From: a virus | IMG/VR virus record: IMGVR_UViG_3300020196_000003 | Length of the DNA: 64,000 nucleotides | Reading direction: 5' to 3' (one strand) | Shown: piece by piece, positions 1 to 61,837 of the stretch | Numbering within the stretch: the first letter of the stretch is position 1 | How the letters are laid out: every line of letters begins with the position of its first letter | Position numbers and translations under genes: made by a program | The notes under the pieces: model-generated | The model's database searches: none | The model's input: only the letters and a program-made list of their open reading frames with translations | Told to the model about the DNA's origin: nothing

Positions 1-544
1 TAACGATCAATTCTACCGCACCATCAAAAGTTCTATCTGAGGAGGGTTGTTGTGTAAAACAACTAACTCCCATTGGAAATATCGTAATCACATCGCATTC
101 ATTTTTGGGTTTAACCGAAGGAATACTTGTCGGACATTGATTGTCTTCACAAATATCCGTTAACTTTAAAGGTATCTGAATTTGATCATCAAACTGAGGA
201 TAAATTTTACTACAAATATTGTAAGTTAAACCTTGTGTAATTGTGTCTACAACAATGTTGTCATTACAATCGACATATGTTATGTCTGTTGTTTGGTCTT
301 TTGATTTTATAAAATAACAATAACAGTTACAAGTGCAAGTAATTCCTGTATTGATTGTAATTTCATATGTTATATCACATTCCACAATACCTAAATCGAC
401 AACAAAAAAACAAGTATCAGGTGTTTGTCCAGATATATCAATAGAAACATAATTAAATGATGACTCACTCAAACCAGAAAAATTTGATATAATTGGAGGA
501 TATGTTCCATCACAGGAATAGAGTATATAACAGTTTTCTATCAT
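1..544 (-). CDS. Cys-rich putative virion protein, probably SprB-repeat type (partial, runs off window start; not in ORF track)
   Basis: ATG at 544-542 opens MIENCYILYSCDGTYPPIISNFSG...CTCNCYCYFI...SCFTQQPSSDRTFDGAVELIV with no stop before the window edge. TATTTATA motif lies 7 nt upstream, and the last residues resemble the start of an SprB repeat. Confidence 0.75.
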   Translation of the reverse strand, partial: MIENCYILYSCDGTYPPIISNFSGLSESSFNYVSIDISGQTPDTCFFVVDLGIVECDITYEITINTGITCTCNCYCYFIKSKDQTTDITYVDCNDNIVVDTITQGLTYNICSKIYPQFDDQIQIPLKLTDICEDNQCPTSIPSVKPKNECDVITIFPMGVSCFTQQPSSDRTFDGAVELIV

Positions 545-560
545 GTTTTAATATAAATAA

Positions 561-1541
561 TTAAAAACTGTATTTTTGAAGATAAGTTTTCATGTTTTCA
601 ATATATTTTATTGTTGAGCTTTTAGAATCTATATAATCAAAATAATTTATGTTTTCTTTTAATTTTTTTAATGGGTCTATATTAATATAGGAACCTTTGT
701 AGAATTTTGTATTTTTTAAGTCTTCAGTAACTCCTGCCATATGTAAAATTGGTTTTTTTTCATAGACTTCAATATTGTCGGTCGCCCATGAAAAATCAAG
801 TTCTTTTGTTATAACTGTTTGTTTGTTGTCCTTCCACAAGTTCCACAATAAACTCCACATTTCTGCAGTCCAAAATTGAATTTCTCCAGGTGATATTGGA
901 AATCTTTTTTGATAATCTAACATTTGATTATACAACCCTATTGAGTCTTCATATATTTTTTCCCACAACTCATATGTTGTATCTTTGATAATATACTGAC
1001 CTCCACCTGAATGTAGTCTATTTTTTTCAATAACGTCGATATCAATTTTTACAATTTCTGCCATTTCTTCTAACAACTGATTTCTTGTTGAACTCGGGTA
1101 TTGTTGTTCATATCTTCTACAACAATCAACTATATAGTCATAACTAATATATCCATTCGTGTCTGACAAATAACAAACGTCATCTTGAATCATTTTTTCA
1201 AAATTTGGTAAAGTTCTAAATATTATATCCGCGTCATGTAGAAAAAATAATTTTCCGTTTTGAGGACAATCTTTAATCCACTTTGAAATCAGGTATGGTT
1301 TTATAGAAGGTATGTAATGTTTTTTTTTTCTTTCGTCAAAATAGTAATGGACTTTTACTCCCATTTTTTTTAACTCTGAAGACTCCTTAGATGGCTCTTG
1401 ACTTGGGGTTACAATTGCAAAAATTATATGAATATTTGATGGGTCAATTTTTTTTTCAATAAAGTTGTGAATATAAAGTTTGGCTTGCCAAATGAAGTAT
1501 GGAACATCTGGTTGTGCTGTGACAAATAATAGATTTTCCAT
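561..1541 (-). CDS. GT-A glycosyltransferase resembling peptidyl-Ser O-galactosyltransferase / Hyp O-arabinosyltransferase (GT96/GT95-like)
   Basis: DxD motif HDADIIF. Ordered motifs PYFIWQ, YIPSIKPYLISKW, GGGQYII and WTAEMW match what I recall of the SGT1/HPAT family motifs. Confidence 0.65.
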   Translation of the reverse strand: MENLLFVTAQPDVPYFIWQAKLYIHNFIEKKIDPSNIHIIFAIVTPSQEPSKESSELKKMGVKVHYYFDERKKKHYIPSIKPYLISKWIKDCPQNGKLFFLHDADIIFRTLPNFEKMIQDDVCYLSDTNGYISYDYIVDCCRRYEQQYPSSTRNQLLEEMAEIVKIDIDVIEKNRLHSGGGQYIIKDTTYELWEKIYEDSIGLYNQMLDYQKRFPISPGEIQFWTAEMWSLLWNLWKDNKQTVITKELDFSWATDNIEVYEKKPILHMAGVTEDLKNTKFYKGSYINIDPLKKLKENINYFDYIDSKSSTIKYIENMKTYLQKYSF

Positions 1542-2054: not shown

Positions 2055-4253
2055 TTAACTACAATCTACACAAGAAATGTTATAATCAATTACTAAATTA
2101 ACTTCTATTTCTGTATCTTGTAATGGATTTATAACTTGTGGTTTACAGGATTTATTAATTTCTTCACAGTTTGTTTTTATCGTAATTCTATTAGAAACTA
2201 AATCAATAGTTACGTCCGAAATTCCAACAAAACCATTCAAAATGTCAGTGATCGCTTCCGCCCACTGAATATCGTTAGGATAATCTGTTCCACCATTAGA
2301 TGAATAAAATTCAGTAATGGCGGATTGTGAACCCACTTTAGCTGAAATAGAAAATGTCGCAGAGTCTATAATACAATTGGTATCTCCACTTGTTAAATCA
2401 TAAAACCCTTCTAGAAACATTGATCTAACAGTTCTTTTTGTGACTAATCCACTATCGATAAAAATATTATTACAAACATTGTAATATTGATAATTACTAA
2501 ATTTTTTTGTTCCTTGTAAGGTTGTGTATTTCGTAAGACTACATCCACTTTCGTCAATCACAGTTAAACTATAAGTGCCTGCGGTTAGACCAGTCACAAC
2601 ATAGCCATCTTGTGTCTCTGCAGTACCTCCACTCCAATTGAGAGTAAATGGCGGAGTTCCTTGTGTTATAAATGCGGTTATAGACCCGTCTTTACCAACA
2701 ATTGGTTGGTTAGGAACTAAATTAAAATTTACAGGTTGACTTGTTGATATGTTTATTGGAAATGTTTGAATACAATTAGGTGTTGAAGAATCTTGTATTG
2801 TTAATACATAATTTCCCGTGTATAAGTTGTTAAAAACATTGAATGGACTTGTGACTGTTGTTGGATTTGTACCTGTGGGTCCTACCAAAGTATAAATATA
2901 CGGAAATGTTCCACCAGTTGATGCTTCAACTTGTAAAATCCCATTGTTCAAACCACAAGTTGTTCCTGTCACTTGAGTTGTAGCACTAAATAAATTAACA
3001 GACTCAATTACTGTGGATGTAGTATAAGTACACCCTGTCGATGTGACTGTAACAATATAAGTTCCATTTGATAACCCATTGAAAGTTTGATTAGAATTTC
3101 CCATTAAGCCAACTTTACTAATACCTGTAGAACCAGATATAGAAATTTGTAGATTTAATACGGGACTTAATCCACCATCAACTAAAACATTCAAAGATCC
3201 ATTGTTCACTGAACAAGTAGAATTTGTTGTCGTTAACTGAACGGTTGTAAAAGAATTAGGAGTTGTCAAACTTACTGAATCGTAAATTGTACATAGTCCG
3301 GCATCGGTGACTAAAAAAGAATAAAATCCTGTTGACAATCCTGTAAATGTAACTGATGAACTAAATGTTATTTCAACTTGTCCTGTAGAAGCACTAAAAA
3401 AATATGGTGGAGTTCCATCTACAATTATAAATTCTACCTCTCCATCGTTACTAAAACATGTTGGTTGTGAAATTACAATAAAACCACCCGAAGTTAATGG
3501 GGCAACTGAATTAACCGTAAATGATTGTGAGGAGGAACAACCAATAGAATTAGTAACTGTTGCGATATATACACCTGCCGTTAGACCGGTAATTGTAGAC
3601 CCTGTTTGACCATTTGCGTTGGAAGACCACGTTATTGTGTAATCGACTGATGGCGATGTTAAACCTGTGATAAATATTTTACCACTTCCATTTCCAATAC
3701 AACTAGCATCATCAACAACATAACCACCAAAGGTGATACCTGATGATGGATTTAAAATTACTGAAGCGGTAATTCCATTACATCCTCCACCATCATCGGC
3801 AACTATGTAGTAAGTTCCCGCAGACAGACTTGTGAAATCTAAATAGTTTGTGGTAGAAATTCCACTAGTTATTAGATTATTCGTAATGTCATAAAGTAAA
3901 AATGTTGTAAAACCATAAACGGATGAGGTGAATCCTGTTATACTTCCGTTGTTGAATCCACAACTAGTATTTGTAGAATCAATTGTGGCGGTTGTTCCTG
4001 TTGAAATATAGACTGTAATTATAATTGAAGCCGAAGTACCGTCAGTTATTTGTAAAAAGTAAGTTCCACCTGATAAACCAGTTACCCTATATTCGTATGG
4101 TTCGGTTAGAGCTGAAGTTGGTAGTGGACAACCTGCGGTTATACAGTTTACCGCAAATGGGGGTGTTGATCCTGTGACGCTGAAAAACAGCTCAGCTGAG
4201 TTTGTATTTGTACAATCACCTCTTACACTATATTGTTCAATCGAAATACTCAT
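2055..4253 (-). CDS. SprB-repeat (Ig-like) virion protein, putative fibre/adhesin
   Basis: Repeated units of C-x-x-x-(N/D)G-x-I ... GTPP(Y/F) ... GLTAGxYxxTVTD-x-x-GC; Thr/Gly/Ser-rich. Confidence 0.75.
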   Translation of the reverse strand: MSISIEQYSVRGDCTNTNSAELFFSVTGSTPPFAVNCITAGCPLPTSALTEPYEYRVTGLSGGTYFLQITDGTSASIIITVYISTGTTATIDSTNTSCGFNNGSITGFTSSVYGFTTFLLYDITNNLITSGISTTNYLDFTSLSAGTYYIVADDGGGCNGITASVILNPSSGITFGGYVVDDASCIGNGSGKIFITGLTSPSVDYTITWSSNANGQTGSTITGLTAGVYIATVTNSIGCSSSQSFTVNSVAPLTSGGFIVISQPTCFSNDGEVEFIIVDGTPPYFFSASTGQVEITFSSSVTFTGLSTGFYSFLVTDAGLCTIYDSVSLTTPNSFTTVQLTTTNSTCSVNNGSLNVLVDGGLSPVLNLQISISGSTGISKVGLMGNSNQTFNGLSNGTYIVTVTSTGCTYTTSTVIESVNLFSATTQVTGTTCGLNNGILQVEASTGGTFPYIYTLVGPTGTNPTTVTSPFNVFNNLYTGNYVLTIQDSSTPNCIQTFPINISTSQPVNFNLVPNQPIVGKDGSITAFITQGTPPFTLNWSGGTAETQDGYVVTGLTAGTYSLTVIDESGCSLTKYTTLQGTKKFSNYQYYNVCNNIFIDSGLVTKRTVRSMFLEGFYDLTSGDTNCIIDSATFSISAKVGSQSAITEFYSSNGGTDYPNDIQWAEAITDILNGFVGISDVTIDLVSNRITIKTNCEEINKSCKPQVINPLQDTEIEVNLVIDYNISCVDCS

Positions 4254-8145: not shown

Positions 8146-8171
8146 TTTTTTTTCTTTTTTTTAATAAATAG

Positions 8172-9347: not shown

Positions 9348-10150
9348 TATGGGTTAACGTATTCATACCATTTTATCGGTGTTACTGAATCTCCAACTCG
9401 CAAATTTGTTGAGGTGGAAAACACTTCATATGTTTTAGTTGAGTAATTCAACTCATACCTATAATAGAAATAATCAGAATTATTAAAAGTAAACTTGTTT
9501 GGTAATATTAAATCTTGTTTAGTATTGGTCATTTGTTTGAATGTTCCTATTCTTGCATCAAAAAATTTTGCGGTTACATAAAATTCATCTATATATATGA
9601 AATTTTTGCTCCTTAGCCAATAGATGAAAAAACCTTCTTTATCACCTATAAAATCCAAAATCATTTGCGGTTTTTTAATATCAACTTGAGGAACTAAACT
9701 TGATAATGTTGCAATTTGTGTAGTTCCTTGTTGAACTGGAAGAATTATTGATAAGTAAATTTGTTGTTGTTTTTCATCTACACTATCATAAAAATCCAAC
9801 TTGAAAAAAGATTTTGTAAATGGTTTAGAATAATAATAAATTTCACTAACACTAAATCCATTATTGAGATATGAAATCGACCAATTACCAACTGTATTTG
9901 CAGTTATAGGTTGTGAATAATCATAAAAATAAAAATCATATTGTATCGAGGTGTTTTGGTTTGGAAATATATTTTGTGAAAATCTTGCAATTTCAAAATC
10001 TGCTGCAGGCCCAATGACTTGATCAATAACTTCAACTTCATATTCATCAATCGCCTGATCTTTACCCGTAAAATCCCACTGCATATTGATTGGAACGTTG
10101 ACATAACCATCGATACTACTTTTTATTATTTTAATTCTATTCGCATTCAT
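9347..10150 (-). CDS. Hypothetical structural protein
   Basis: 267-aa aromatic, beta-rich ORF overlapping both neighbours in the baseplate operon. Confidence 0.5.
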   Translation of the reverse strand: MNANRIKIIKSSIDGYVNVPINMQWDFTGKDQAIDEYEVEVIDQVIGPAADFEIARFSQNIFPNQNTSIQYDFYFYDYSQPITANTVGNWSISYLNNGFSVSEIYYYSKPFTKSFFKLDFYDSVDEKQQQIYLSIILPVQQGTTQIATLSSLVPQVDIKKPQMILDFIGDKEGFFIYWLRSKNFIYIDEFYVTAKFFDARIGTFKQMTNTKQDLILPNKFTFNNSDYFYYRYELNYSTKTYEVFSTSTNLRVGDSVTPIKWYEYVNP

Positions 10151-17500: not shown

Positions 17501-17577
17501 TAAAAAATCGTTTTTTCATAAATAGTTTATTTCCCATTTTCATAGAAAAATAGTCCAATTCATAAAAAAATAAATTA

Positions 17578-19425
17578 CTAAGAAAAATTAACCGATTTTA
17601 AGTTCAAAACTCTAATATTAATATCTTTGTTGGGGAATCTAATTTGGTATACTTGAGTGGGGGTTGCAAATATAGTATCGGCCGTAGGTTGAATTTGTTT
17701 TGTCAAAGGATCTAAGTAAGGCATTGAAGTTTGTGCTGAAGAATACTGTCCTCCAACTTGATTAAAAAATAAAATATCAGAAACACTTACTACTCCATTT
17801 TCTGACTGAAGAAGTTTTCTGATTTCAGAGATGTTAACATTCTGTCCTAATTGAATTACTAACGGATTAAAATATTCTGAGACAATCTGGATCGCCTTTG
17901 TTATAAGCGCCCCTTGGTTTTGACTGTTATCAAGTACAAGATCTACTGTTACACTCAAATCAATTGTTTCTGCCGCTTCCACAGATATATAATCATTTAT
18001 CATTCTATAATTCGAAAGATAATTAGCAATGTTTTGTTTAAGAGTGTTCGACACCACATTTGATAAGCTACCTTCAGTATCATAAGATAACATTTTGATT
18101 CTTATCTTATTGTTTTCTTCGGTAATTGCAACTTTAGCTGGCGCACCAAATTGGGATGGCATAGTCCTAATCAAAGAATTATAATCATTAACTGTAACCG
18201 CCCTTTTCTGTGCCGCAAAATTAAAAGAAACCATGTTTCTAACATCTTCAGTTGTTGGTAAATTAGCGCCACCGATAGTTGCGGTAACATTATTACACTG
18301 TAAACTGTTGATAACAGTTCTATTTACCGAATCCGAAGGCCCATTTACTGCAAAAGAAATAGTCCCAATCTGATTAATGGTGTTTAATCCAACATTACTA
18401 GCTAATCCTCCTCCAATTCTATATTGAACAAAAAGAGTGGTATTGGGCGTTAGTGCCGCTCCCATGGCGTAATTGTTGGTGTATCTACTCAAATCGAATC
18501 CTTTGCCGTCTCTTGCAAATTCTCGAAGTTGTTCTTCAGCAGAAATATTTCCTCCACCAAAAGTTAATTTACAAAAACCTTGAGGTGTATATTCAGAAAT
18601 AAATTTATTCGATGTCGTTATGTATCTTCCAACTTTAATACCTGGTTGATCAGAAACTTTAGTTGGGTCTTCAACAAAAATTCTATCTTGAACTAAGGCG
18701 TCCACTTCATACCACCTGTCTAAACCCAAACTTAAAAAATCTTGTGGGCTTGGTGTTGTTGAATATTGTGTTCCAGGTTTTAACAAAACACTTGTTATAT
18801 TGAGAATATTTTTTTCAGGAAGAAACAATTCTAAATAAGGTTTAACATCATTTGGTGTTATAACTCTTTTGAAAACTTTTGTAACTCCATTTACAACTAC
18901 TTCTCTTTTTACAATAGTATAATTAATTAGTTTTCCACTCGAGTCAAAATTTGGAATTTTAACTCTATTAGGTGACCCTTCAGCGTTTATTGGTGACGCA
19001 AAATCAATATCGTAGACTGTTTCAAATGGTTGTCCAGCGCCATTAACTAAAGACCCTCTTCTCAAAATTCCACAATATCTCAGATCTTCTCTATCTCCAA
19101 AAGCTGGAACGGTAATTGAAAAATCTACTAATCCAACTGAAGGTCTTTGACCCGGCACTTTCAATCCGTAAGTTCTTGCAATATTGTATACAGAGTTTTT
19201 TTGTTGGGCAAATTGTAATACGGTTTCTTGAATACTTCTGTCTATCTGGTAATTCAAATTATCTGTCACGGCAGCATTCAAATCCAACATTACTGAAAAA
19301 ATACCGGCGTCGTTGAAATTTTGAACTAAATCTGGATAGTACGTTCTTGTAAAATTTATAAGTTCAGTTCTAACTCCTTGGAAGTCTCTAGCTACGTATG
19401 ATATTTTTTTTTCTGCCATATTCAT
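17578..19425 (-). CDS. Baseplate wedge protein, T4 gp6 / baseplate J-like
   Basis: YVARDFQGVR N-terminus, AQQKNSVYNIARTYG, YRIGGG..NV and AQKRAVTVNDY; adjacent to a gp25-like gene. Confidence 0.85.
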   Translation of the reverse strand: MNMAEKKISYVARDFQGVRTELINFTRTYYPDLVQNFNDAGIFSVMLDLNAAVTDNLNYQIDRSIQETVLQFAQQKNSVYNIARTYGLKVPGQRPSVGLVDFSITVPAFGDREDLRYCGILRRGSLVNGAGQPFETVYDIDFASPINAEGSPNRVKIPNFDSSGKLINYTIVKREVVVNGVTKVFKRVITPNDVKPYLELFLPEKNILNITSVLLKPGTQYSTTPSPQDFLSLGLDRWYEVDALVQDRIFVEDPTKVSDQPGIKVGRYITTSNKFISEYTPQGFCKLTFGGGNISAEEQLREFARDGKGFDLSRYTNNYAMGAALTPNTTLFVQYRIGGGLASNVGLNTINQIGTISFAVNGPSDSVNRTVINSLQCNNVTATIGGANLPTTEDVRNMVSFNFAAQKRAVTVNDYNSLIRTMPSQFGAPAKVAITEENNKIRIKMLSYDTEGSLSNVVSNTLKQNIANYLSNYRMINDYISVEAAETIDLSVTVDLVLDNSQNQGALITKAIQIVSEYFNPLVIQLGQNVNISEIRKLLQSENGVVSVSDILFFNQVGGQYSSAQTSMPYLDPLTKQIQPTADTIFATPTQVYQIRFPNKDINIRVLNLKSVNFS

Positions 19426-20319: not shown

Positions 20320-22179
20320 TTATACTATTTCACAAGCTCCACCCGCACAAGCGGCTTCACCACTAAGGTTTGTATTATCTTGTAATTCGATTACTTTTGT
20401 TAAATCTACATCTGATAATGTTTTAATCAAGCGGTCGAAATCTTCTTCTGTACAATCTTCAAATGGTGCTTGAGTGTATGTTCCTCCATTATATGGTAAC
20501 ACAGATAAACCATTATAAAATTTTCTGTTGTTCCACATCCAATCCCCAACTAAATCCCACTCGTCTTCTTTAATTGAAACCGTCGCTGATACGTTGTGTG
20601 AGTTTTGACCTCCTCTGTGTCCAAATTTGATCCACTCTTGAGATACTTTTTTAACACGTTCCAACATTTGGAATACTGACTCGTGACGAAAAATAGATCC
20701 TTCAGGTGACTTTTGTGGGATTGTAATTACCGCAGTGTCATGAGGTCTAAAGAACTCATCTTCAACTAACTGAGGGTGATTGATTGCCAAGTAAGAATAG
20801 ATTGCTTCGTTTTTACCAACACGAATTCTTCTTAAATAGAAATTATTATGCCAAGCGTGAATACCTGAAGATGTACCTAAAACCAAAGATGAAGTTCCTG
20901 ATGGTTTAACAGTTGTTGTTCTTGCCGCCTTGTTGATTCCAATAAGATTAACAACTCTTTCATTTTCTTGTTTAACAGCAATCGCCGCAGCTTTCATATC
21001 ATAACCCAAAACAACACCTGATCCAATACCTGTCATACCAACTCCGATAAGAGCGTCTTTTTCGGTTGTTCTTTTCCAAACATCACGAAGATAGTGGAAA
21101 TCTGTGTAACCTGCTTGGAGTGTCCCGATAAATGCCGCCCCTTTAACTCTTTTTTCAAAGTCTTCTTGAGATTCGATGTCAGACGCATTTACCTCACACA
21201 AGTTACAGAACTGATAGGGACGAAGACCGATTTCACAACAAGGATTAGTTCCCCAGTCTTTATCGTTTGATAAATAGATTCCAGGTTCTCCCGCTCCTGA
21301 CAACTCGATTCGTTTCCAAAGGTCCATAAAATAATCTTTAGTAACTTTGTGACGAAGAAGAACTGCTGAGTTATTTGCTCTACCTCTTTGGGGATTTGAT
21401 TCCCACCAACCTCCAGACTTACAAGAAATCATTTCATCATCATCTGCCGAGAATAGTGAAATCAAAGCCGCTCTGCGAATACCACCTGCTAATACTGAAT
21501 CTGCAATATGGCAAATAATATCGTGGGTTTCAATAGGTGAGAGTTTTTCACCGTCAACTTTGTTTTCAAATACTTTGATAATGTTATGAATACAATCTTT
21601 TAATGGTTGTGGTCCAGGAGCTTTTCCTCCTGATGTAACCAACAATGCACCCTTTTGACGGATATCTGAAAAGTCAAAAATTGGTGTTGATGATTTAACA
21701 CCTAAATAAGATTCGATCAATACTTTGATTGCATCAGCCCACCCTTCAATGCTATCCCCGATTAAATATCTTCTTGTTCTATTTGGATTCGGTTTTTTAA
21801 TTTCAGGTAGTTTTTCTACGTGATGTTTTTGAACTGAAAATCCTACACCTGTACCACCTAACAATAAAAACATTGTTTCTGAAAATGCATCAAAGTGGTC
21901 AATTGGCATGTATGCACAGTTATAAATTCGGTTTGGTGAGATTTCAATTGGTTTTCCACCAAATTGTAAAGATCTCATTGAAGGTAAGATTTTTTTATCA
22001 TATACCATTTGATAAACTTCTTCGATCTCATCTTTAATTTGTGGGTATTTCTTTTGGTGCATTTGTTTGTTTCTTGTCACCAGTTCTTCCCACGTTTCTC
22101 GTCTGTTTTTTTCAGGAAGAAACTTTGCGTATTTCATATACACCGTGATATCACTTAATATTCTTTGCGAAATATCCAT
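20320..22179 (-). CDS. nrdJ: Class II (B12-dependent, monomeric) ribonucleotide reductase
   Basis: LPSMRSLQFGG, IYNC, GTNPCCEI active site, TVKPSGT and C-terminal ACAGGACE; no small-subunit gene nearby. Confidence 0.88.
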   Translation of the reverse strand: MDISQRILSDITVYMKYAKFLPEKNRRETWEELVTRNKQMHQKKYPQIKDEIEEVYQMVYDKKILPSMRSLQFGGKPIEISPNRIYNCAYMPIDHFDAFSETMFLLLGGTGVGFSVQKHHVEKLPEIKKPNPNRTRRYLIGDSIEGWADAIKVLIESYLGVKSSTPIFDFSDIRQKGALLVTSGGKAPGPQPLKDCIHNIIKVFENKVDGEKLSPIETHDIICHIADSVLAGGIRRAALISLFSADDDEMISCKSGGWWESNPQRGRANNSAVLLRHKVTKDYFMDLWKRIELSGAGEPGIYLSNDKDWGTNPCCEIGLRPYQFCNLCEVNASDIESQEDFEKRVKGAAFIGTLQAGYTDFHYLRDVWKRTTEKDALIGVGMTGIGSGVVLGYDMKAAAIAVKQENERVVNLIGINKAARTTTVKPSGTSSLVLGTSSGIHAWHNNFYLRRIRVGKNEAIYSYLAINHPQLVEDEFFRPHDTAVITIPQKSPEGSIFRHESVFQMLERVKKVSQEWIKFGHRGGQNSHNVSATVSIKEDEWDLVGDWMWNNRKFYNGLSVLPYNGGTYTQAPFEDCTEEDFDRLIKTLSDVDLTKVIELQDNTNLSGEAACAGGACEIV

Positions 22180-22195
22180 TTTAATTTTTTTTTAA

Positions 22196-23587
22196 TTAAT
22201 TATTTGTTTGATTTTGGGAGTCCTTTTGTTTCCTTTTTTCAAGTAACTCTCTAACTCTTTGTCTTTGTCTTTCCTCTTTTTGTTCTTCTAACCCTAAGAA
22301 AGTCATAGAGCTTTCAGTATCAATTTCAATCATTGCATTATCAAATTTACAATTTTCAAACACTACCCCATCATCACCTATTCGAGACTTTGTTATCGCG
22401 ATGGTTGCCAACTTTAATTCTTTTTGTTGCAACGTTTTAGCCACCGAGATAATAACATGTCCGACTTGTGCTTTTTTAATTGATCCACCCATTTGATCGG
22501 TCGTTACAAGTTCTGAAGATATTGATGACCTATTTCCTTGAGTTGCGGTCCATCCAACTAAGTTCATTTCGTGACACATAGCCTCGAATGCTCTCATAAC
22601 AGATCCTTCACTTTTCCACTCATCACCTAAGTTTTTGTCAGGAACAATACAATCAATATAGTCTAAAACAACCATATCAATTTTAATTCCTTCGGAAACC
22701 ATTTTTCTAATTTGATTTTTAATTTGTAACATCGTGAGTGTATCAGATGGAAGTTTTTTCAAAATAAGTTTGTTTGGCATCTTGTCGTGGATCTCTGTAA
22801 CCGTATTCATAACATCTTTCTTTTTTTCTGACAAATCATCAGGATGAATCTTTGTCCATAATGTGAAGTGTTTTCTTTGTATTACTTTTGGGTTGTCTTC
22901 GAAAAAGATTTGTAAAACATTGAAACCAAGGTTAAATGCGTGGTTTGAGATTTTGGTTAGTACCGTAGATTTTCCAACACCAGTTGGTGCTAAAATAACT
23001 CCGATTTCACCTTTAGCCAAACCACCTTTTAATAGTCTGTCAATTCCAGATATACCCATAGGTATAGGATGTCTATAATCATCTTCGAGAACTTGATCAA
23101 GGTTTGAGAATACGTCTAACATTGACGTATCTTTTGCTCCGACCTGAAGGGCCGTTTTTACCATTTCTTCGAGAGTGTCATAGTTTTCAAACTCGCCCCC
23201 ATCAATGATCTTCTGTGCTTTTCCCATAACCTTTTGAAGTTCTTGTTGTTTACAGAATTTCAATGCTTTTTCTTGAACAAAACCTACTCCATCAATAGGT
23301 GCATCTTTAATTTTTTTAATTGTGTCTAAGACAATCTTCGATGCCGTTGCCTGTTGTAGTTCAGATTTGCTTATTTGTTCAAGTGTTTCAAAAGACGGTG
23401 TGTGATCGTATTTTAGGTAATACTCTTTTACCATTTGAATTAATATTTTAAAATACTTGTTTTCAAAATAACTGTTTTCGATAACATCAAGAATGGAGTG
23501 TGAAAAGTCTTTATCTACAATAATTTGATTTAATAGTTGTAATTGAAAAGTGTTTCCTAAATACTCAAAATTTTTACTTGTCGCCAT
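22196..23587 (-). CDS. Replicative DNA helicase (DnaB / T4 gp41-like)
   Basis: Walker A APTGVGKS, Walker B VVLDYID, WTATQGNR and KSR motifs. Confidence 0.9.
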   Translation of the reverse strand: MATSKNFEYLGNTFQLQLLNQIIVDKDFSHSILDVIENSYFENKYFKILIQMVKEYYLKYDHTPSFETLEQISKSELQQATASKIVLDTIKKIKDAPIDGVGFVQEKALKFCKQQELQKVMGKAQKIIDGGEFENYDTLEEMVKTALQVGAKDTSMLDVFSNLDQVLEDDYRHPIPMGISGIDRLLKGGLAKGEIGVILAPTGVGKSTVLTKISNHAFNLGFNVLQIFFEDNPKVIQRKHFTLWTKIHPDDLSEKKKDVMNTVTEIHDKMPNKLILKKLPSDTLTMLQIKNQIRKMVSEGIKIDMVVLDYIDCIVPDKNLGDEWKSEGSVMRAFEAMCHEMNLVGWTATQGNRSSISSELVTTDQMGGSIKKAQVGHVIISVAKTLQQKELKLATIAITKSRIGDDGVVFENCKFDNAMIEIDTESSMTFLGLEEQKEERQRQRVRELLEKRKQKDSQNQTNN

Positions 23588-23620
23588 ATGTTTTTTTCCT
23601 GTTGGTAAAAATAAATAGTC

Positions 23621-24070
23621 TTAGTTTTTAATAAATTCAGAATAAAAATAATTATATTTTTTACCTGAAAAAATGTCAGTAAGTGACGCAAGTATGTTTT
23701 TTAACTTTGGCCGTAGGTCTACGGTATATCTGACCTTTGGAGGATAAACTTTAGCATCAAACTCACGCTGACAAATTGTCATGTCTCCAAGTTTAATTAT
23801 CAAGTTAAAATTTTCAGGACCTTCAGTAATTGATGTGTCTAACACATTAGGATTCTCAAAAATTTCATATTGATTATCTAACATATAAGTTACCGATCTC
23901 ATTTTTAAATCATACTTGAGTTCATTACATAAACTTGTAATGTGTTCATAAAACTCTTCAGATTTATGAGCGTTCTTATTAAACCCTCTAACATTAAAAA
24001 ATCGTTGAACTACAATGTTGTTATTACACATTAACAAAAATTCTAATTTTGTTATATCCTGGTCTTTCAT
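23621..24070 (-). CDS. Hypothetical protein in replication operon
   Basis: 149-aa ORF coupled to the exonuclease gene (ATGA overlap). Confidence 0.6.
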   Translation of the reverse strand: MKDQDITKLEFLLMCNNNIVVQRFFNVRGFNKNAHKSEEFYEHITSLCNELKYDLKMRSVTYMLDNQYEIFENPNVLDTSITEGPENFNLIIKLGDMTICQREFDAKVYPPKVRYTVDLRPKLKNILASLTDIFSGKKYNYFYSEFIKN

Positions 24071-25089
24071 TTGTTTGTTTTATTTTTGTTATTTCTAAAT
24101 TTTTGTTTTTCTTTTCTTGTTAATTTTAGGAATGGTTTTAAAAAACTTACCCAAGCGTCGTCACCCTTCGGTAAGTATTTAAAAAACCCGTCCTCCATCA
24201 TCATTCGAATTAGATTTCTATACCCTCTTCCGTCGGGATCCATCGACTCTGAGTAATATAGTCCAACTAATTCTTTTTCCTCTTCATTTAAAAGGGGGTT
24301 ATCCAAGTTAACAAGTTTTTCGTTGATTACAAAAAACTCATCACCAAAAATACCCTCTTTTGTTTTCCCACTGAGGAGGTTATGAAGAACAACGTTTTCT
24401 TTTTCTTCTTTTAAAAGTTTTTCACTCTTTTGTAAAATATATACTAATTCAACATGTTGTTCAAGTAACTCAGGAAACATTTTAATTAAAGTTTTCTCAC
24501 CAAGATAGAATATACCATCAATATTGTCGGAGATATCTCCTGTGAGTATTTTAATTGTTTTAACATTATAGTGAGGGACTTCGATATCGTGAAGTTTTAT
24601 TTTATCTCCCAACTTATAATATTTTTTTGTGGATGGTGAATAAATCGAAACTTTTTCGTCAATCAGTTGAGTCAAATCTCTGTCACTCGAAAAGATTGTT
24701 TTTTCTTCGTCTAAAGAGACTTTGCAGTACTGAGCAATTAAGTCATCAGCTTCTGCATGTTCTGTCTCCAGTTGTCTTACAAACATCTCCTCAAGGTATT
24801 GTTTAACCCTTTGTTTTTGTTCCAAAAAAGATTCTTCTTTCAATTCCGTTTCAGATGATTTACGGTTTAACTTATACTTGGGATAAATTAATCTTCTCTG
24901 AGTCGATGAAGTTTTAGAGTCCCAAAGAACAACAACTTTATTGTAGTTATGTTCTTCGAGGAATTTGCGAAGAGTGTTTATAAAGTGCCATACACCACCA
25001 ACATGTTTTCCATTATGATAGAAATCTCTAACACCATGAAATCCAATTTTCAATAAATTATTTCCATCTACTAATAATGTTTTGGACAC
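24067..25089 (-). CDS. 5'-3' exonuclease / flap endonuclease (T4 RNase H-like)
   Basis: LLVDGNNL, YKLNR, EADDLIA, SSDRDLTQL and GDISDNIDGI..GEKT motifs; GTG start. Confidence 0.92.
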   Translation of the reverse strand: MSKTLLVDGNNLLKIGFHGVRDFYHNGKHVGGVWHFINTLRKFLEEHNYNKVVVLWDSKTSSTQRRLIYPKYKLNRKSSETELKEESFLEQKQRVKQYLEEMFVRQLETEHAEADDLIAQYCKVSLDEEKTIFSSDRDLTQLIDEKVSIYSPSTKKYYKLGDKIKLHDIEVPHYNVKTIKILTGDISDNIDGIFYLGEKTLIKMFPELLEQHVELVYILQKSEKLLKEEKENVVLHNLLSGKTKEGIFGDEFFVINEKLVNLDNPLLNEEEKELVGLYYSESMDPDGRGYRNLIRMMMEDGFFKYLPKGDDAWVSFLKPFLKLTRKEKQKFRNNKNKTNK

Positions 25090-25110
25090 TTCCTGAAAAT
25101 TAAATGATTT

Positions 25111-26118
25111 CTACTCTACTTCTTCTTTTTCTGTTTTCAGATCAAAGTCACCATCAACTCCGATTATATCTTTCCAATAGTCAGCATACTCTTTCTTATA
25201 CTTTTCTATTGATGCCTTTTCTTCGGTTGTATCTTTACCGGGTAAAAATCCGTGGGGAGTTACAATAATTCTTCCGTCTTCAAAACCAAGACCATTAATG
25301 TGGTTTTTCATAACTGACACTTTTGTCCTTGAAGCAAACTTTACAGTCCTCTTATCTTTTGTTGCTGTGATCTTTGTTGTACCAGCACCTTTTTGATTAC
25401 CAAATAAGAACACCAAAGAGGAATTTAACCAAATTGCTTCACCACCTTTTGCCTTAATTTTTGGTTGACCAAAAGGATTATCGGGCAACTCTACCCATGG
25501 TTGGTTAACCACTATCAAAGTATTTTCGTGTTTGGAATCTGATTTACGAGATCCTGAAATTCTTTGGTTAATACCCATACCGATTTTGTCGGCCAATGCT
25601 GCTGCATTGTGTTGTTTTCCACCTCGCCCTTCATAAGTCATTTTACATGGAACTGATCCGACTGAATCCCACACTATACAAAGTGAATAATCTAACTCAC
25701 CTTTTTCTTGTGCATCCAATAAATCGTTTATATATTCCGTAATTTGTTCAATGTAGTCGAAGTTATTATTAAATAAGAAAAATCCATCCCATGTTAATTC
25801 ACCCGTTTCTTCATCTACCACTTCTTCACAGTCAAGTCCCATAAGTTTGGAGTGTTCAAAAGACCACTTCTGTTCAGTAATAATAAAAACAGGAAGAATA
25901 CCCTTTTTTTGTGCGTCAACTGCAGTTTTAATAAGTGCAGTAGTTTTTCCTGTATCCGAGTGACCGAGCAACATATTCAAGTGTCCTATTGCAGGACCAG
26001 GTAATCCAACCGCATCAAGGAATTCTGAACCAAGATCAAAAAATCTTTGTGGTTTATATTTTGCGTCCGCAGAGAACTTCTTTTTTATCGAAGTAAAGTC
26101 ATTTTTCTTAAGAGCCAT
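25111..26118 (-). CDS. uvsX: RecA/UvsX-like recombinase
   Basis: GHSDTGKTT Walker A, IVWDSVG Walker B, VVNQ, KGGEAI and KNH. Confidence 0.85.
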   Translation of the reverse strand: MALKKNDFTSIKKKFSADAKYKPQRFFDLGSEFLDAVGLPGPAIGHLNMLLGHSDTGKTTALIKTAVDAQKKGILPVFIITEQKWSFEHSKLMGLDCEEVVDEETGELTWDGFFLFNNNFDYIEQITEYINDLLDAQEKGELDYSLCIVWDSVGSVPCKMTYEGRGGKQHNAAALADKIGMGINQRISGSRKSDSKHENTLIVVNQPWVELPDNPFGQPKIKAKGGEAIWLNSSLVFLFGNQKGAGTTKITATKDKRTVKFASRTKVSVMKNHINGLGFEDGRIIVTPHGFLPGKDTTEEKASIEKYKKEYADYWKDIIGVDGDFDLKTEKEEVE

Positions 26119-35688: not shown

Positions 35689-38600
35689 TTAGTTAAAAGT
35701 TACTTTACCATTGAAGGTTTTTTTATTGTCATTAAGATTTACACTGCTATATAAATCTTTCAATTTTTTGTTCTTATCGTTTAGATTGGTTGTCGATGGT
35801 GATACAAAATTGCATTTTTTTATTTGTGTGTCAGGAAGTTTAAATTTGGACAAAGTATCATACTCTTGTGATTTTTCAATGTTTTCAAAAATGTTGCTCC
35901 ATCCTTTTTGAAATTCCGTATAATTATTTTTTAAACTTAAACATCTTTCTTTCAATTTTTCAATTACCGTTGCATTTCCTTTAATTTCATTACCGCTTGT
36001 TAAATCTTCTATAAATTTCGTATATAAATCTTCTTTTGTAAATAATGGGGACATCGCGATATAAAACCTATTATAGGCACAACTATCTCCGAAAGGGTAT
36101 TGGTTACCAACGCCAGTTTTATTTTGAAATTTGCAGTCTTGTCCATTTTCTATGGTAGATTTTTTTTTATTATAAAATCCATCTTTGGATGTAACATTAT
36201 TACTAACCAATAAAGATTCAAATTTAGAAAGAGCCTCAGGGACTTTATTGGTATACAAGTTTGCCAAAGTTCCTTCTGTTGTTGCCGGTCCAAAAAAAGT
36301 ATCACCACTCAAATCATATGTAACGGGTTCATTATTAGATCCGAGCTCACCATCTAATTTTGAATTTACAACGTCCAATTGTCTAAATATGAAATTTAAA
36401 TTAGTCTGATTTTTTATTAGATTAGAAGTGTTATTTGTAACGATATCAGACATCGGGCCTTTTCTTTCGTTAGCATAATTTTGTAATTTATCTTCAAGTT
36501 CTCTTTTTATTTTGTTTGTCATTTGACTTACTCCTTTCAAAAATTCTAATATTGGGTCATCATTTTTTTCAATGTCTTTTTTAACATCTCCTACTAACTC
36601 ATCTATATAACCCAAATCTACATTACTTTTACCAAAAAGAATTGTTTTAGTTTTATCATTGGTGTATTCAGAAAGTTCTCCTTCAGTATATGACCTATCT
36701 TGAAGTGCAATTTGAACTAAACCATAGTTATAATCATTATTAATTTTAGAAATACATTCATAATATGATTTAAAATAAAGTTGTAGTCCGTCTTGTAAAG
36801 ATAGTAATGTAGAGTCATAGTCCATTTCAGTAGCGCTTGCTACTACTCCTACAGTTGTTCCCCCTTTTTTTGGTTGGATATTATTTGCAATATTATCCGC
36901 CTGTTGTGAACTAAGATTTGGAAGACCCGATGTTAATTGTTGGACCACATATTGGTCCAATTTACTAGTGTCTTCTGTTGGAGTGGCTCTTTCGTCATAG
37001 ATTTCAGTATTAGCATAATAGTTAAATGATAATGCATTTTGAAGTTCTTGTACGGGTTCTCTAAGACCCATACCACCTATAATATTAAACGTCAGGGTTA
37101 TGTTTGCCAACATAGGTTGAACTCCGATACCTTCAGGGTTGATGTCCAAAATAAGAGGATCGTAACTAATAGATAATTGTGTTGGTACAATCTTAGTGTG
37201 ATAAAAGTCACCAACTCTTAAGATTAGTATAGGAGGAGCACCAAAAGTAGTGTTTAGTGCGTCATTATATTTTGGTCGACCATCCGTTCCTATTACAGGA
37301 ATTGTTTGTCCTGGTCTTGTACATTGCTGTAAAAATGTTAATCTAGCATTCAAACCTTCAGGTGTCATTGAATGGAAAGTTGGGCTAAAAAATTTAATTT
37401 TTTCTTTTATTGTATCATATATCATTGGGTCACTTTCTTTTATAACCTGGAAATAGTCACATTCAGTAAAAAGATTTCTTAGTATTTTTTTCGATATTCC
37501 TTCTTTGATTTTTTGTTCAACTGTAAGTTTTGGCTCGGGTTTAATACTTTGGGTTTGGCCTGTTAATATATTCGGGACTGGTGTTGGTTTTGGGGTTGGT
37601 GGTGCTTGACTTGGTTGTGGTTGTTCAGTAATTGGTACTTCTATTGTTACACTTTTAATCGAAACTCTCCTACAAGCCATTGCCGGTATACTATACCACT
37701 GAGCTTTGCTAGAAGATTCAACATCTCCCGATGTTGGGTTATTTGTTGAGACTGTTGTTATATTTTTTGTACAGTCAACTGAGGCGTTCAATACAGGACC
37801 ACCTTGTGATGTTGTAACACTTATATCAACATTATCATCGGGGGATTTAGGTTTTTCTTGTGTTTTTGGTATAACCAATTGTTCGCCCGCAGAATCAAAG
37901 TTCATGGTAAAAAAACCATCGGATTGATATTTTTCTAGTGTATTACCGTCTTTTAATTTTTGAGCTAAAAACCATTTTTTCACCGAATCGTTTCTTCTTT
38001 CAGATAATTTTTTATTATATGATAATTTTTGGGGAGCTGAAGCAGACCCAACTAACTGCATTGTAACTTTACCTTTTTTGTCAACTAATACTTCATTTAA
38101 TTTATTCAAAAAGTCAGTTTGTATAAATTCAAAATTACCTTGTATTACCGAAGAAAAAAAGTTAGGTATTCCATCTTTCGAAAATGGATCAGTTCCAACA
38201 TAAACTGTTTGGGGGGCTTGTTGTAGATAAGTTGGTTGTAGTCCTATATATTGATTATAATAAATATCGTATGGTGAGGCGGCAACAGTTTCTGGATTGC
38301 CTTTTGGAATATCATTTTCAAAATAAAATGCGTATCCAACAAAAGTATCTACATTAGTTTTATCGTACTGAATGTTTGTTTGGGTTTGAGTTCCTGTACT
38401 AGTAGAATTTTGAGTATTGTCTGATCCTGACGAATCCCCTTCGACGGTTGTTTCTTGGTTGATGGGTAAACTTTCATAAACTTGTATTTGTTCTTCACTT
38501 GTCAATCTCGGGTTATTAAGTATTTGTTGATACGTATAAAGATCTTTTGTTGGTATAGTGTTGAATTTAATTCCTAACTCATATAAATCATATTTAGTAC

Positions 38601-40767: not shown

Positions 40768-40817
40768 TATTTTATTTTATAAATAGATAATAGAGGTTTT
40801 TTTTACAACTAAATCAC

Positions 40818-42696: not shown

Positions 42697-42852
42697 TTAA
42701 TCTTTGTTTTGTTCTTCAACAAATTTTTGTATTAAATACTTTCTTACATAAGTTGGCATTGACATAAACTCTGAATATTGAGTTCGGAATATTTTGGAAA
42801 AATAATAAAGTTCATCCAAAATTGTTTTTTTATAAGGCAAAGAAAGGCCGAA
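42697..42852 (-). CDS. gp51/GT-like tail chaperone C-terminal ORF, probably expressed by frameshift
   Basis: ILDELYYF...YSEFMSMPTYVRKYLI motif. It overlaps the upstream chaperone in the +1 frame and has no convincing own start. Confidence 0.6.
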   Translation of the reverse strand, partial: FGLSLPYKKTILDELYYFSKIFRTQYSEFMSMPTYVRKYLIQKFVEEQNKD

Positions 42853-43600
42853 AAAACTCCACCCCAAAAGTAATGTCAACCATTACTCTTTCTCCTGACG
42901 GGGCGATTACTTCTTTTGATAAATCCAATCTTGGTTCGTTACTATATAAAAATTTTCTGATGTATTTAGAATCTAATATTGGCATTGACTCCACAAACGA
43001 TGATATTTTAATTCTATCTGTATCACCATCTAAAGAAACAATATGTTTATTCAATTTTGTAGTAATAGTTGGTGCCACTCTAAAAGAGGGATAGCTGGCT
43101 AGTGTTTTACTAAGGTCTATTGTTTCACTTAGAGATAGTAGTTTTAATGTTACATTTTTTTTCGAAACAGGTAATGTAACTTCAAAAAGTCCATGTTCGT
43201 TTGGACTTGTTTCTACTTTTTTATAATTCAATTCGTCTAAATAAACAGAGGTCGAAAAATTTTCGTTGGTTTTTGGGTCAACAACGGTAACTTTATACTC
43301 TGGCCCAAATGCGGTGTTTCTTAGAAATAAAAGTATAGCTTCTACATCTCCGTCTAATAATTCTTCTGGTCTTAAATCGTGTTCGAAAAGTTTATTTCTT
43401 AATAGGGGTAGTATTATAGTTTCATTAACACTTCGTGTTCCATTAAAGTCCGACAGTATGTTTTCATCAACTGCCGTTAGGTATCCTACTTTTACCGATT
43501 TTTTTTTAGATTTATAATAAACTCCTTGAGTTGGTAGGTTAATAACGTCATGTGGTAGAGTTAAATTCCCATGACCTACAGTGTATTCATTTTGTTCCAT
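42830..43600 (-). CDS. Tail/baseplate hub assembly chaperone (T4 gp26-like)
   Basis: LPTQGVYY, YLTAVDENIL, GDVEAILLFLR..AFGPEY and VTLPVSK; ends ITFGVEFFRP; lies between tube and tape measure. Confidence 0.75.
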   Translation of the reverse strand: MEQNEYTVGHGNLTLPHDVINLPTQGVYYKSKKKSVKVGYLTAVDENILSDFNGTRSVNETIILPLLRNKLFEHDLRPEELLDGDVEAILLFLRNTAFGPEYKVTVVDPKTNENFSTSVYLDELNYKKVETSPNEHGLFEVTLPVSKKNVTLKLLSLSETIDLSKTLASYPSFRVAPTITTKLNKHIVSLDGDTDRIKISSFVESMPILDSKYIRKFLYSNEPRLDLSKEVIAPSGERVMVDITFGVEFFRPFFAL

Positions 43601-43618
43601 TTTTTTTAAAAAAAAGAT

Positions 43619-43650
43619 AAAAAAAAACCGTAACTAGTAAAGTATACGGT
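43619..43650 (-). terminator. Putative terminator after tail tube gene
   Basis: - strand ACCGTA...TACGGT stem followed by a T-run. Confidence 0.5.
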
Positions 43651-43674
43651 CTTTTATAATATGTATGTTTTTTA

Positions 43675-44163
43675 TTAGTAAACTAATATACATCTATCCA
43701 TTTGCATTGAACAAGTAATTCCCGCAATACCATCTTGCGAATATGAAAGACTTCCTCCGTCGTAACCTAAAAGAAATGCCCCTTCTAATATCCATTTTTC
43801 AACTACAACACCTGTTGGGTCTAACATTTCAAGATCTACATTTTTTTTGTAACCTGCAGCATATCCCATACGACCTGTAACAGACTCCGCACAGGTACGA
43901 ATCCATTCCATAATTGCTTGAGACGCAGATGGTCCAATAGGGTCTCGAAATTTAACTTGAAGTGCTTCCCATTTAAATCTACCCGCAACATATGTTTCAG
44001 TGTTTAGAAACTCTATAGCTTTTGACGTAATCGTAAGTTTTGGGCGTGAGGTACTTTCAACATACCACTCATTTATTCCAAGTGACGATGGAAATCTGAG
44101 GATCCATCGGTTTTCCCTTTTTGGTTCGTAGGGAATCGGCATTTTCATTAACAAATCAGCCAT
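43675..44163 (-). CDS. Tail tube protein (gp19-like)
   Basis: 162 aa; EPKRENRW, YVAGRFKW, YKKNVDLEMLDPTG.VVEKW.LEGAF. Confidence 0.85.
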   Translation of the reverse strand: MADLLMKMPIPYEPKRENRWILRFPSSLGINEWYVESTSRPKLTITSKAIEFLNTETYVAGRFKWEALQVKFRDPIGPSASQAIMEWIRTCAESVTGRMGYAAGYKKNVDLEMLDPTGVVVEKWILEGAFLLGYDGGSLSYSQDGIAGITCSMQMDRCILVY

Positions 44164-44200
44164 GTTTTAATTTTTTTTTAATTTTGTTTTATTTTTTATT

Positions 44201-44207
44201 ATAAATA
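44201..44207 (-). promoter_or_regulatory. TATTTAT putative phage late promoter (example: tail tube gene)
   Basis: The same coding-strand motif precedes about 20 genes in the window (see findings). Confidence 0.65.
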
Positions 44208-44274
44208 TGAAGTTTTGAAAAATTTTCTATTTACTTCGAATTTTTTTTAAATTAATTATTATTTAGTGGTTTAA

Positions 44275-45105: not shown

Positions 45106-45126
45106 AATAATAAATATTCTATAAAT

Positions 45127-45156
45127 AAAAAAAAGGGGAACTAATGTCCCCCTTTC
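45127..45156 (-). terminator. Rho-independent terminator after sheath gene
   Basis: - strand AAAGGGGA-CATTAGT-TCCCCTTT followed by a T-run. Confidence 0.8.
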
Positions 45157-45172
45157 ATTTTAATTAACCACA

Positions 45173-53318: not shown

Positions 53319-53364
53319 TTAATCAAATCTGTTTTAGTTTTTTTTTACTGAATATTTATCGTAA

Positions 53365-60732: not shown

Positions 60733-60769
60733 CCGAACTTTTTTAATAAATACCTTGTTTTTAATTTCA

Positions 60770-61810: not shown

Positions 61811-61837
61811 CAAATCTTTTAACTATAAATACTCCAA

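Follow-up and report, generated by a model that had tools for sequence, protein, structure and literature searches.

A phage glycosyltransferase family with distant likeness to plant HPAT is encoded beside threonine-rich virion proteins, its candidate acceptors

Introduction

To our knowledge, glycosylation of the phage particle has been demonstrated in mycobacteriophages only, where it alters antibody recognition. Passages of two articles describe phage-encoded transferases in Che8, Rita and other mycobacteriophages, locate the glycans at the C-terminal ends of the capsid and tail-tube subunits (PMC11256854, PMC12619734), and cite Freeman et al. (2023, Cell Host Microbe 31:1216) as the origin of this work. 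The transferase genes are placed, in the passage concerned, near the 3′ end of the genome and away from the structural genes (PMC11256854). Our literature search returned no paper on the enzyme family described below, PHROG 4417, nor on "prophage pi2 protein 34" as a transferase, and nothing relevant on poly-Thr tails of phage structural proteins.

Here we analyze a 64,000-nucleotide stretch of IMG/VR virus record IMGVR_UViG_3300020196_000003, referred to as the window. A preliminary description of this DNA proposed that the phage encodes a glycosyltransferase resembling the plant hydroxyproline O-arabinosyltransferase HPAT (GT95) and the Ser-directed galactosyltransferase SGT1 (GT96), and that the enzyme serves Thr/Pro-rich proteins of the phage's own virion. 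The core of that proposal is kept, with several corrections, among them that the acceptor signature accompanying the enzyme is poly-Thr, not the Ser-Hyp of extensins. On the evidence as a whole, it is fairly probable that an HPAT-related phage enzyme glycosylates Thr-rich tracts of virion proteins during late infection. What we infer to be new relative to the mycobacteriophage systems is that the virion would be glycosylated by another kind of enzyme, one related to HPAT, at a recognizable poly-Thr acceptor tag.

Results

A soluble GT-A glycosyltransferase of PHROG 4417

The gene under study has the following position:

561-1541, minus strand: HPAT-like glycosyltransferase gene, a 326-aa ORF with an ATG start

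Its product is a stand-alone GT-A glycosyltransferase that belongs to PHROG 4417 and appears to be a distant relative of plant HPAT. PHROG 4417 is a phage protein family whose function is annotated as unknown; the match has an E value of 1.2e-65 and pairs residues 6-319 with profile positions 3-290 of 293. Five motifs had been listed for the ORF, and all are present in the order claimed: PYFIWQ at residue 14, YIPSIKPYLISKW at residue 76, HDADIIF at residue 102, GGGQYII at residue 179 and WTAEMW at residue 224. They reflect conservation across the family, not chance. In an alignment of 49 sequences, Y15, W18, Q19, Y76, D103, D105, G180, Q182, W224, M228, W229 and H267 are invariant or nearly so, and the residues invariant in the same alignment include Y76, D103, D105, Y131, G180, Q182, W224, F250, H267 and G270.

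A Pfam search with the 326-aa protein gave no match at E values up to 10, and the 49 homologues returned noise only. A sequence search of the PDB likewise gave no match, and megablast with 6 kb of the sequence found none among isolated phages. The profile search of the PDB returned TAL-effector repeats and a weak match to GNPTAB only. An enzyme that transfers sugar-1-phosphate, as Stealth and GlcNAc-1-phosphotransferase enzymes do, would leave phosphoglycosylated Thr or Ser on its substrate; we consider such a reaction very improbable here.

The AlphaFold model of the protein, computed with the 49-sequence alignment as input, has a mean pLDDT of 97. It shows a Rossmann-like fold of the type that binds nucleotide-sugars, together with a DxD motif and a C-terminal metal-site His, as expected of a GT-A enzyme, and its closest solved folds are retaining GT8/GT24 enzymes. 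From these fold neighbors, the enzyme is predicted to act, probably, with retention of anomeric configuration. The protein begins directly at the first strand, and its highest 19-residue Kyte-Doolittle mean is 0.74, so that no hydrophobic or membrane segment is apparent; a membrane-bound enzyme was ruled out on this ground. It is thus highly likely that the protein is a GT-A glycosyltransferase that is soluble and has a metal site of the DxD...His type. Some homologues have the domain joined to PF11397, protein O-fucosyltransferase (O-FucT) or GT6 transferase domains.

The gene was also said to follow a TATTTAT motif. This was confirmed at 1551-1557 on the minus strand, where the motif starts 16 nt upstream of the ATG. 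The same heptamer occurs within 45 nt upstream of 15 of the 38 gene starts in the window; its frequency in random 45-nt windows is 1.8%. It probably serves as an element of a late promoter or of the initiation region.

Relationship to plant HPAT

HPAT sequences were retrieved with a 72-residue probe, which returned 829 database proteins; only retrieved sequences were used afterwards. All 120 matches listed, of the 829, carry the HPAT domain PF23452, and many are named hydroxyproline O-arabinosyltransferase by NCBI/UniRef. A second search, for longer HPAT relatives, added only algal multi-domain HPAT-like proteins and fusions, none of them named SGT1.

Scored against a profile of the phage family (169 sequences), 101 plant HPATs had a median of 11.3 bits and reached 15.5 bits at most; the highest value for 10,100 shuffled HPATs was 8.8. 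Profile-profile comparison with hhalign gave P 8e-4 with plant sequences alone and P 1.2e-5 (probability 81%, 246 columns) when 14 algal domains were included, and an improvement on adding diversity is what true homology predicts. The reversed HPAT profile gave P 0.56, and GT8, GT6, GT60-like and HtrL controls, each represented by one sequence per family, gave P 0.07-0.96 over 9-42 columns. Single plant HPATs reached P 1.4e-4 to 6e-4 over 103-213 columns; single algal HPAT domains reached P 0.006-0.062 only.

In the alignment, nine residues conserved in the phage family (Y15, W18, Q19, Y76, D105, Y131, W224, M228 and H267) fall on identical, invariant or near-invariant HPAT residues, which in the Parasponia enzyme are Y78, W81, Q82, Y136, D165, Y188, W253, M257 and H294, respectively. 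Phage D103 is aligned with a Glu, E163 of Parasponia HPAT. A folded HPAT model (pLDDT 85) has an N-terminal helix at residues 6-31. Along the hhalign alignment, the secondary-structure strings of the two predicted models agree at 67% of aligned positions, versus 35 ± 6% for shifted registers. Comparison of the phage model with solved structures led to the GT8/GT24 folds, and the HPAT model shares these neighbors, its own closest set being GT8/GT6/GT24.

The likeness to plant HPAT motifs noted in the preliminary description is therefore reproduced with real HPATs at the level of profile alignment and the nine shared residues; the Pfam model of GT95 does not match. PF23452, with a cut-off of 23.9 bits, misses the 326-aa protein at E values up to 10, finds one match only (E 0.38) among the 49 homologues, and has no match in a six-frame search of the phage record. 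Glyco_transf_8 (PF01501) matches neither the protein nor the six-frame translation of the record. One profile-profile comparison gives moderate support to an HPAT homology, which we judge quite likely. By sequence, the enzyme appears closer to GT95 than to the other GT-A families tried and is not itself a GT95 member.

The gene lies in a structural region of a jumbo phage genome

The parent IMG/VR record comprises 151,972 bp at 32% G+C, with a CheckV completeness of 52%. Since relatives that have a copy of the gene at 63-65% identity measure 274-318 kb and are 93-100% complete, the record is about half of a jumbo myophage genome of roughly 290 kb. The transferase gene forms the far end of a minus-strand block that begins at a baseplate wedge gene (17578-19425), and the intervening genes encode very large fiber-like proteins of PKD and SprB type. 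Tail tube, baseplate hub and sheath genes are found at 42830-48523; a capsid gene was not identified in the window. The immediate neighbors of the transferase gene are:

2055-4253, minus strand: fiber- or adhesin-like protein of 732 aa (15% Thr, 12% Ser), encoded upstream of the transferase
2-544, minus strand: start of a 709-aa gene directly downstream of the transferase (first 181 residues), after a 16-nt spacer

The 732-aa protein, part of this tail and fiber block, matches two models below their thresholds, the SprB repeat with 24.9 bits (cut-off 28) and Por_Secre_tail with 21.2 bits (cut-off 27), and sub-threshold matches of this kind in the neighboring proteins point to a Bacteroidota host. 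In the part of the 709-aa protein that lies beyond the window are an SprB repeat and a 28-residue Ser/Pro/Thr tract; the next gene downstream, likewise outside, encodes an 835-aa protein in which PTPT tracts and a T8 run occur.

Transferase genes number at least seven in the record: the HPAT-like gene, an HtrL_YibB-like gene, a PF11397 gene (E 1e-67), one GT4, one GT9 and two GT2 genes. Two further glycosyltransferases had been placed at 61838-64000, and the first of these stands:

61838-63505, minus strand: putative second glycosyltransferase, 555 aa, of which the first 250 residues match HtrL_YibB (PF09612, E 2e-19)

No glycosyltransferase is recognizable at 63505-63999, where profile searches returned no match. 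The PF11397 glycosyltransferase begins just beyond the window, at the equivalent of 64265-65509.

Stand-alone enzymes are coupled to poly-Thr tracts

An exhaustive search of 1.8 billion cluster representatives gave a family of 813 clusters at 50% identity, present in at least 594 IMG/VR contigs and 131 bacterial genomes. Among isolated phages, tblastn found the gene in 77 records. For closer inspection we took seven siphophages that are unrelated: Enterococcus phiFL1A and VPE25, Lactococcus 1706 and CHPC836, Clostridium phiCTP1, Lactobacillus iLp84 and Staphylococcus SA2. In all seven, the gene is the immediate successor of the tail-tube gene or of the capsid gene, or lies no more than one gene away from the latter, and the capsid and/or tail-tube proteins end in T6-T10 tails of pure Thr. 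In Chryseobacterium phage MA9V-3, long Thr/Ser tracts are encoded by one of the two genes just upstream and by a third gene further upstream.

Close relatives that lack the gene provide matched comparisons. Five Streptococcus relatives of phiFL1A (capsid 60-69% identical) retain the same gene order with the transferase absent; in these phages the capsid and tail-tube proteins terminate in short Ala/Pro/Gly tails. Four relatives of CHPC836 (capsid 55-62% identical) have neither the gene nor poly-Thr tails.

The reverse test started from the tracts. A scan of IMG/VR for DNA able to encode T9 yielded 85 loci with an in-frame run of T8 or longer. The gene was present at nine of the 85, versus none of 116 control loci with acidic runs (Fisher p 3e-4), and in every one of the nine it lies on the strand of the poly-Thr ORF and adjoins the 3′ end of that ORF. 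Pairwise identity is only 30-60% among these nine enzymes and 31-37% between them and the enzyme of the window.

Bacterial genomes were sampled at 79 loci, divided into stand-alone forms (up to 370 aa) and fused forms (450-1380 aa) and scored for a gene with a T-run within 6 kb. Such a gene accompanies 29 of 40 stand-alone forms versus 3 of 39 fused forms (Fisher p 2e-9). It occupies position -1 in 35% of cases and position -5 or -6 in about 20%, with 0-6% at other positions; the gene at -5/-6 is the capsid gene in cases where the transferase follows the tail tube. The remaining 11 of 40 stand-alone loci have no T-run by the criterion used, some of them being on very short contigs and one being borderline. 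Fused cellular forms occur in Chitinophaga, Pedobacter, Sphingobacterium and Acidimicrobiia, and their scarcity of Thr-run neighbors means that the family as a whole is not tied to poly-Thr. For the stand-alone enzyme, a tie to Thr-rich tracts appears well supported by four independent lines of evidence: the isolated phages, the nine matched absences, the reverse test and gene position. The expectation that the transferase tracks such tracts across phages is borne out.

Could the enzyme instead modify something other than the virion? Its target might be a host envelope polymer (teichoic acid, LPS or capsule) or phage DNA, with the Thr-rich neighbors merely co-inherited as parts of a fiber or decoration module. 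A passage of PMC12619734 presents DNA glucosylation and serotype conversion as the best-known activities of phage transferases, the closest folds of the model include the LPS enzymes LgtC and WbbM, and the fused cellular forms largely do without Thr-rich neighbors. Weighing against a non-virion target, the gene is situated inside late structural operons; in the seven siphophages it follows the capsid gene or is flanked by the tail-tube gene and the chaperone gene; it adjoins the poly-Thr ORF at all nine divergent loci; gene and tails co-occur and are jointly absent in two matched lineages; and the protein has no membrane segment. Moreover, the classic T4 enzymes for DNA glucosylation belong to the GT-B class. 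On these grounds we rejected a DNA-modifying or serotype-converting transferase, and we regard a non-virion target in general as unlikely.

Thr/Pro/Ser tracts in the jumbo phage

Pro/Thr tracts had been claimed at four places in the window. Three were found, in the sheath and in two proteins near the HtrL_YibB-like gene; the fourth, near 37575-37625, is a weak Pro-rich linker only:

47543-47662, minus strand: Pro/Thr/Ser tract, candidate acceptor, aa 288-327, in an insertion of the 1116-aa tail sheath (45173-48523)
60193-60324, minus strand: (PT)n tracts, candidate acceptor, aa 163-206 of a 306-aa Cys-rich protein (59890-60810)
61316-61393, minus strand: Pro- and poly-Thr tract, candidate acceptor, aa 141-166 of a 347-aa protein (60770-61813)
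37531-37662, minus strand: weak Pro-rich linker QPQPSQAPPTPKPTPVP in a 1692-aa protein (35689-40767), below the tract criteria

Across the record, 8 of 145 ORFs carry Thr/Ser/Pro tracts. Three are downstream of the transferase gene: those for the 709-aa and 835-aa proteins follow immediately on the same strand, and that for a 496-aa protein lies further away on the opposite strand. Two are beside the HtrL_YibB-like gene, at 59890-61813, the 347-aa ORF being directly downstream of it; two are near the GT9 gene outside the window, and the remaining one is the sheath. An estimate that allows for tandem clusters and seven transferase genes gives a p of about 0.05-0.08 for the adjoining of tract and transferase genes within this genome, which is only suggestive.

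The tracts in the window are internal linkers of the sheath and of fiber-like proteins. They are mixed Pro/Thr linkers, with examples such as PTPTPT and SSASPSAPSSPS, not clean poly-Thr tails, and because they stand alongside at least seven transferase genes, sequence does not decide which enzyme serves which tract. Among 79 IMG/VR relatives, the gene at +1 carries a Thr/Pro tract in 64% of loci and the gene at +2 in 73%, with no tracts in genes seven or more positions away. These roughly 80 relatives form one lineage, so the pattern represents conserved synteny rather than independent events.

Discussion

Proposed role and acceptor

Because the gene adjoins poly-Thr capsid, tail or fiber genes in many unrelated phages, the enzyme probably sugar-coats the virus particle. 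That the 326-aa enzyme itself glycosylates Thr-rich tracts of virion proteins is fairly probable. We propose that a soluble, cytoplasmic, metal-dependent GT-A enzyme, the phage branch of an HPAT-related family, would move a sugar from a nucleotide-sugar to Thr hydroxyls, and perhaps Ser hydroxyls, in Thr-rich virion tracts late in infection. For the phage studied here, the likely acceptors are the Thr/Pro/Ser linkers in the fiber-like proteins of the genes that immediately follow, with the sheath linkers as a possible addition; for small siphophages, we expect the acceptors to be the C-terminal poly-Thr tails on major capsid and tail-tube proteins.

GT2, GT4 and PF11397 genes are absent from five complete small phage genomes that encode the enzyme. 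If the tails are glycosylated by the phage, the homologue would start the glycan in such phages, being their sole recognizable transferase, and we suggest that it is the initiating enzyme there. In the phage of about 290 kb, the products of the other transferase genes, at least six, could lengthen the glycan or act on other tracts. The virion would bear a glycan coat, and that coat may act in shielding, solubility or adhesion.

The identity of the acceptor residue bears on how far the plant analogy extends. A true equivalent of HPAT or SGT1 would add arabinofuranose to hydroxyproline, or galactose to Ser, in extensin-like Pro-rich tracts, and the remote homology, the conserved residues held in common and the Pro-rich tracts of this phage are all in keeping with such an activity. 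Against it, the siphophage tails contain no Pro, the Pfam HPAT model has no match, and a search of the record, which covers about 52% of the genome, found no 2OG-Fe(II) prolyl hydroxylase (PF13640). Nor, as far as we know, is UDP-L-arabinofuranose a usual bacterial metabolite. We therefore give strict equivalence to the plant enzymes very little credence. Given that no prolyl hydroxylase was found and that the siphophage tails are free of Pro, Thr and not hydroxyproline is the likely acceptor for the virion-directed enzyme that we favor.

Implications

If the family does the job described in mycobacteriophages, glycan-coated virions would be widespread, with bearing on phage therapy (immune recognition and clearance), dairy phage biology and phage adhesion. 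A simple sequence rule would follow, in which a poly-Thr tail and an adjoining transferase gene predict a glycosylated virion protein, and the HPAT family, considered plant-specific, would gain its first prokaryotic and viral relatives. Several carriers are already in culture: Enterococcus VPE25 and phiFL1A, Staphylococcus SA2, Lactococcus 1706 and Lactobacillus iLp84.

A broader reading, for which we see even chances, is that PHROG 4417 constitutes a viral and bacterial sister of plant GT95/GT96, a new CAZy family that initiates mucin-like O-glycosylation of virion poly-Thr tags in hundreds of lineages. Such tags would then be found on capsid, tail-tube, sheath and fiber proteins of Bacillota, Bacteroidota and Actinomycetota phages, among them phages of Enterococcus, Staphylococcus, Lactococcus and Lactobacillus, and the poly-Thr tag with its adjoining gene would amount to a portable "glycosylate me" module for phage particles.

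Comparison with known systems

The nearest relatives appear to be the plant and algal HPATs (HPAT1-3, RDN1/2, PLENTY, NOD3 and FIN; GT95; PF23452), with which the catalytic domain is collinear and the order of secondary-structure elements equal. Common to both are YxxWQ after the first strand, a conserved Tyr, [D/E]xD, W...M and a C-terminal His. HPAT acts, and the phage enzyme would act, on hydroxyls of low-complexity peptide tracts rich in Pro or hydroxy-amino acids. The two differ in that the phage enzyme is soluble and without an anchor, whereas HPAT is a type II Golgi membrane protein; in that the phage enzyme has DxD where HPAT has ExD; and in that the acceptor signature beside the phage enzyme is poly-Thr, as opposed to Hyp.

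The GT8/GT24 enzymes (glycogenin, LgtC, GlyE, Skp1 alpha-galactosyltransferase, LARGE1 and UGGT) share the fold at a sequence identity of only 7-11%. Comparison of the phage family with one GT8 sequence gave an hhalign P of 0.15 over 30 columns, in which the N-terminal YxxWQ was not recovered. A64R of Chlorovirus PBCV-1, which functions in N-linked glycan synthesis on this eukaryotic virus, is a weaker match than the GT8 enzymes and belongs to a different family.

In biological role, the closest parallel is offered by the mycobacteriophages, whose glycosylation has been shown experimentally, whereas that of PHROG 4417 phages is predicted from genomes. The hosts differ, those of PHROG 4417 phages being Bacteroidota, Bacillota and others. 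The C-terminal poly-Thr tails of the seven Firmicutes siphophages are carried by the same two proteins, capsid and tail tube, that bear glycans in mycobacteriophages. The arrangement of the genes is distinct: in the mycobacteriophage passages cited above the transferase genes are distant from the structural genes, whereas the PHROG 4417 gene abuts the gene for its presumed substrate.

Glycosyltransferase complement of the record

In the 152-kb record G000, which covers about half of the phage genome, at least seven genes encode glycosyltransferases. They fall into six families: HPAT-like (the 326-aa transferase, window 561-1541, minus strand), HtrL_YibB, PF11397, GT4, GT9 and GT2, the last with two genes. 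The PF11397 transferase gene adjoins that of a 1750-aa protein in which collagen triple-helix repeats (Pfam Collagen, E 6e-174) make up nearly the whole length.

Additional glycosyltransferase genes and the collagen-repeat gene
Window 61838-63505: putative glycosyltransferase, HtrL_YibB-like
G000 100248-101492: glycosyltransferase, outside the window
G000 about 111.2 kb: glycosyltransferase, outside the window
G000 112309-113298: glycosyltransferase, outside the window
G000 about 122.7 kb: glycosyltransferase, outside the window
G000 about 138.8 kb: glycosyltransferase, outside the window
G000 102242-107494 (window-equivalent 66259-71511): collagen-repeat protein, outside the window

At the right end of G000, a 21-base unit (CATCATCCATTTCCATGTCTT) is repeated in tandem over the last 60 bases, and the contig break probably fell within a repeat. 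A minus-strand block of replication and nucleotide-metabolism genes at window 20320-26118, encoding a ribonucleotide reductase, a DnaB-like helicase and a UvsX-like recombinase, separates the baseplate/fibre module from the large structural genes, which are likewise on the minus strand.

The TATTTAT motif

The window contains 60 copies of TATTTAT, as compared with 42 +/- 7 in shuffled sequences, and the motif is frequently found in spacers of less than 30 nt. Of 38 gene starts, 15 have a copy in the 45 nt preceding them, against 1.8% of random 45-nt windows. The motif appears to be either a late-promoter element or one for translation initiation in this phage lineage.

Examples of TATTTAT in the window
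553-559
1551-1557
8164-8170
17518-17524
40779-40785
45110-45127
53353-53359
61825-61831

Threonine-rich proteins and C-terminal tails

At nine IMG/VR loci, the ORFs that carry poly-Thr and precede the transferase gene encode large proteins (558-2069 aa). Runs of 7 to 16 threonines (T7-T16) repeat within them at intervals of 80-100 residues, in many cases with cysteines on their flanks, as if the runs were linkers joining small disulphide-bonded domains.

Among the isolated siphophages compared, the major capsid and tail-tube proteins of any one phage end in the same few residues, a C-terminal tag common to the two most abundant virion proteins. In 1706 both terminate in ...TTTTHHD. Matching ends are also present in phages that lack the transferase, namely CHPC873 (...STAV on both proteins) and Javan570 (...PGVGG on both). 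In Staphylococcus phage SA2, the tail-tube gene is overlapped at its 3' end by an annotated 87-aa ORF (9661-9924) composed mostly of Thr runs. A frameshift might add this ORF to the tail-tube protein and make its poly-Thr tail longer.

Cellular forms of the transferase domain

Contigs from bacterial genomes also encode the transferase domain, as the N-terminal part of chromosomal proteins of 450-1380 aa in Chitinophaga, Pedobacter, Sphingobacterium, Mucilaginibacter and Acidimicrobiia. No Thr-rich neighbours were seen beside these long forms on their contigs, and the remainder of each protein, outside the transferase domain, had no match in Pfam. Together, these two observations suggest that the cellular branch may use a different acceptor.
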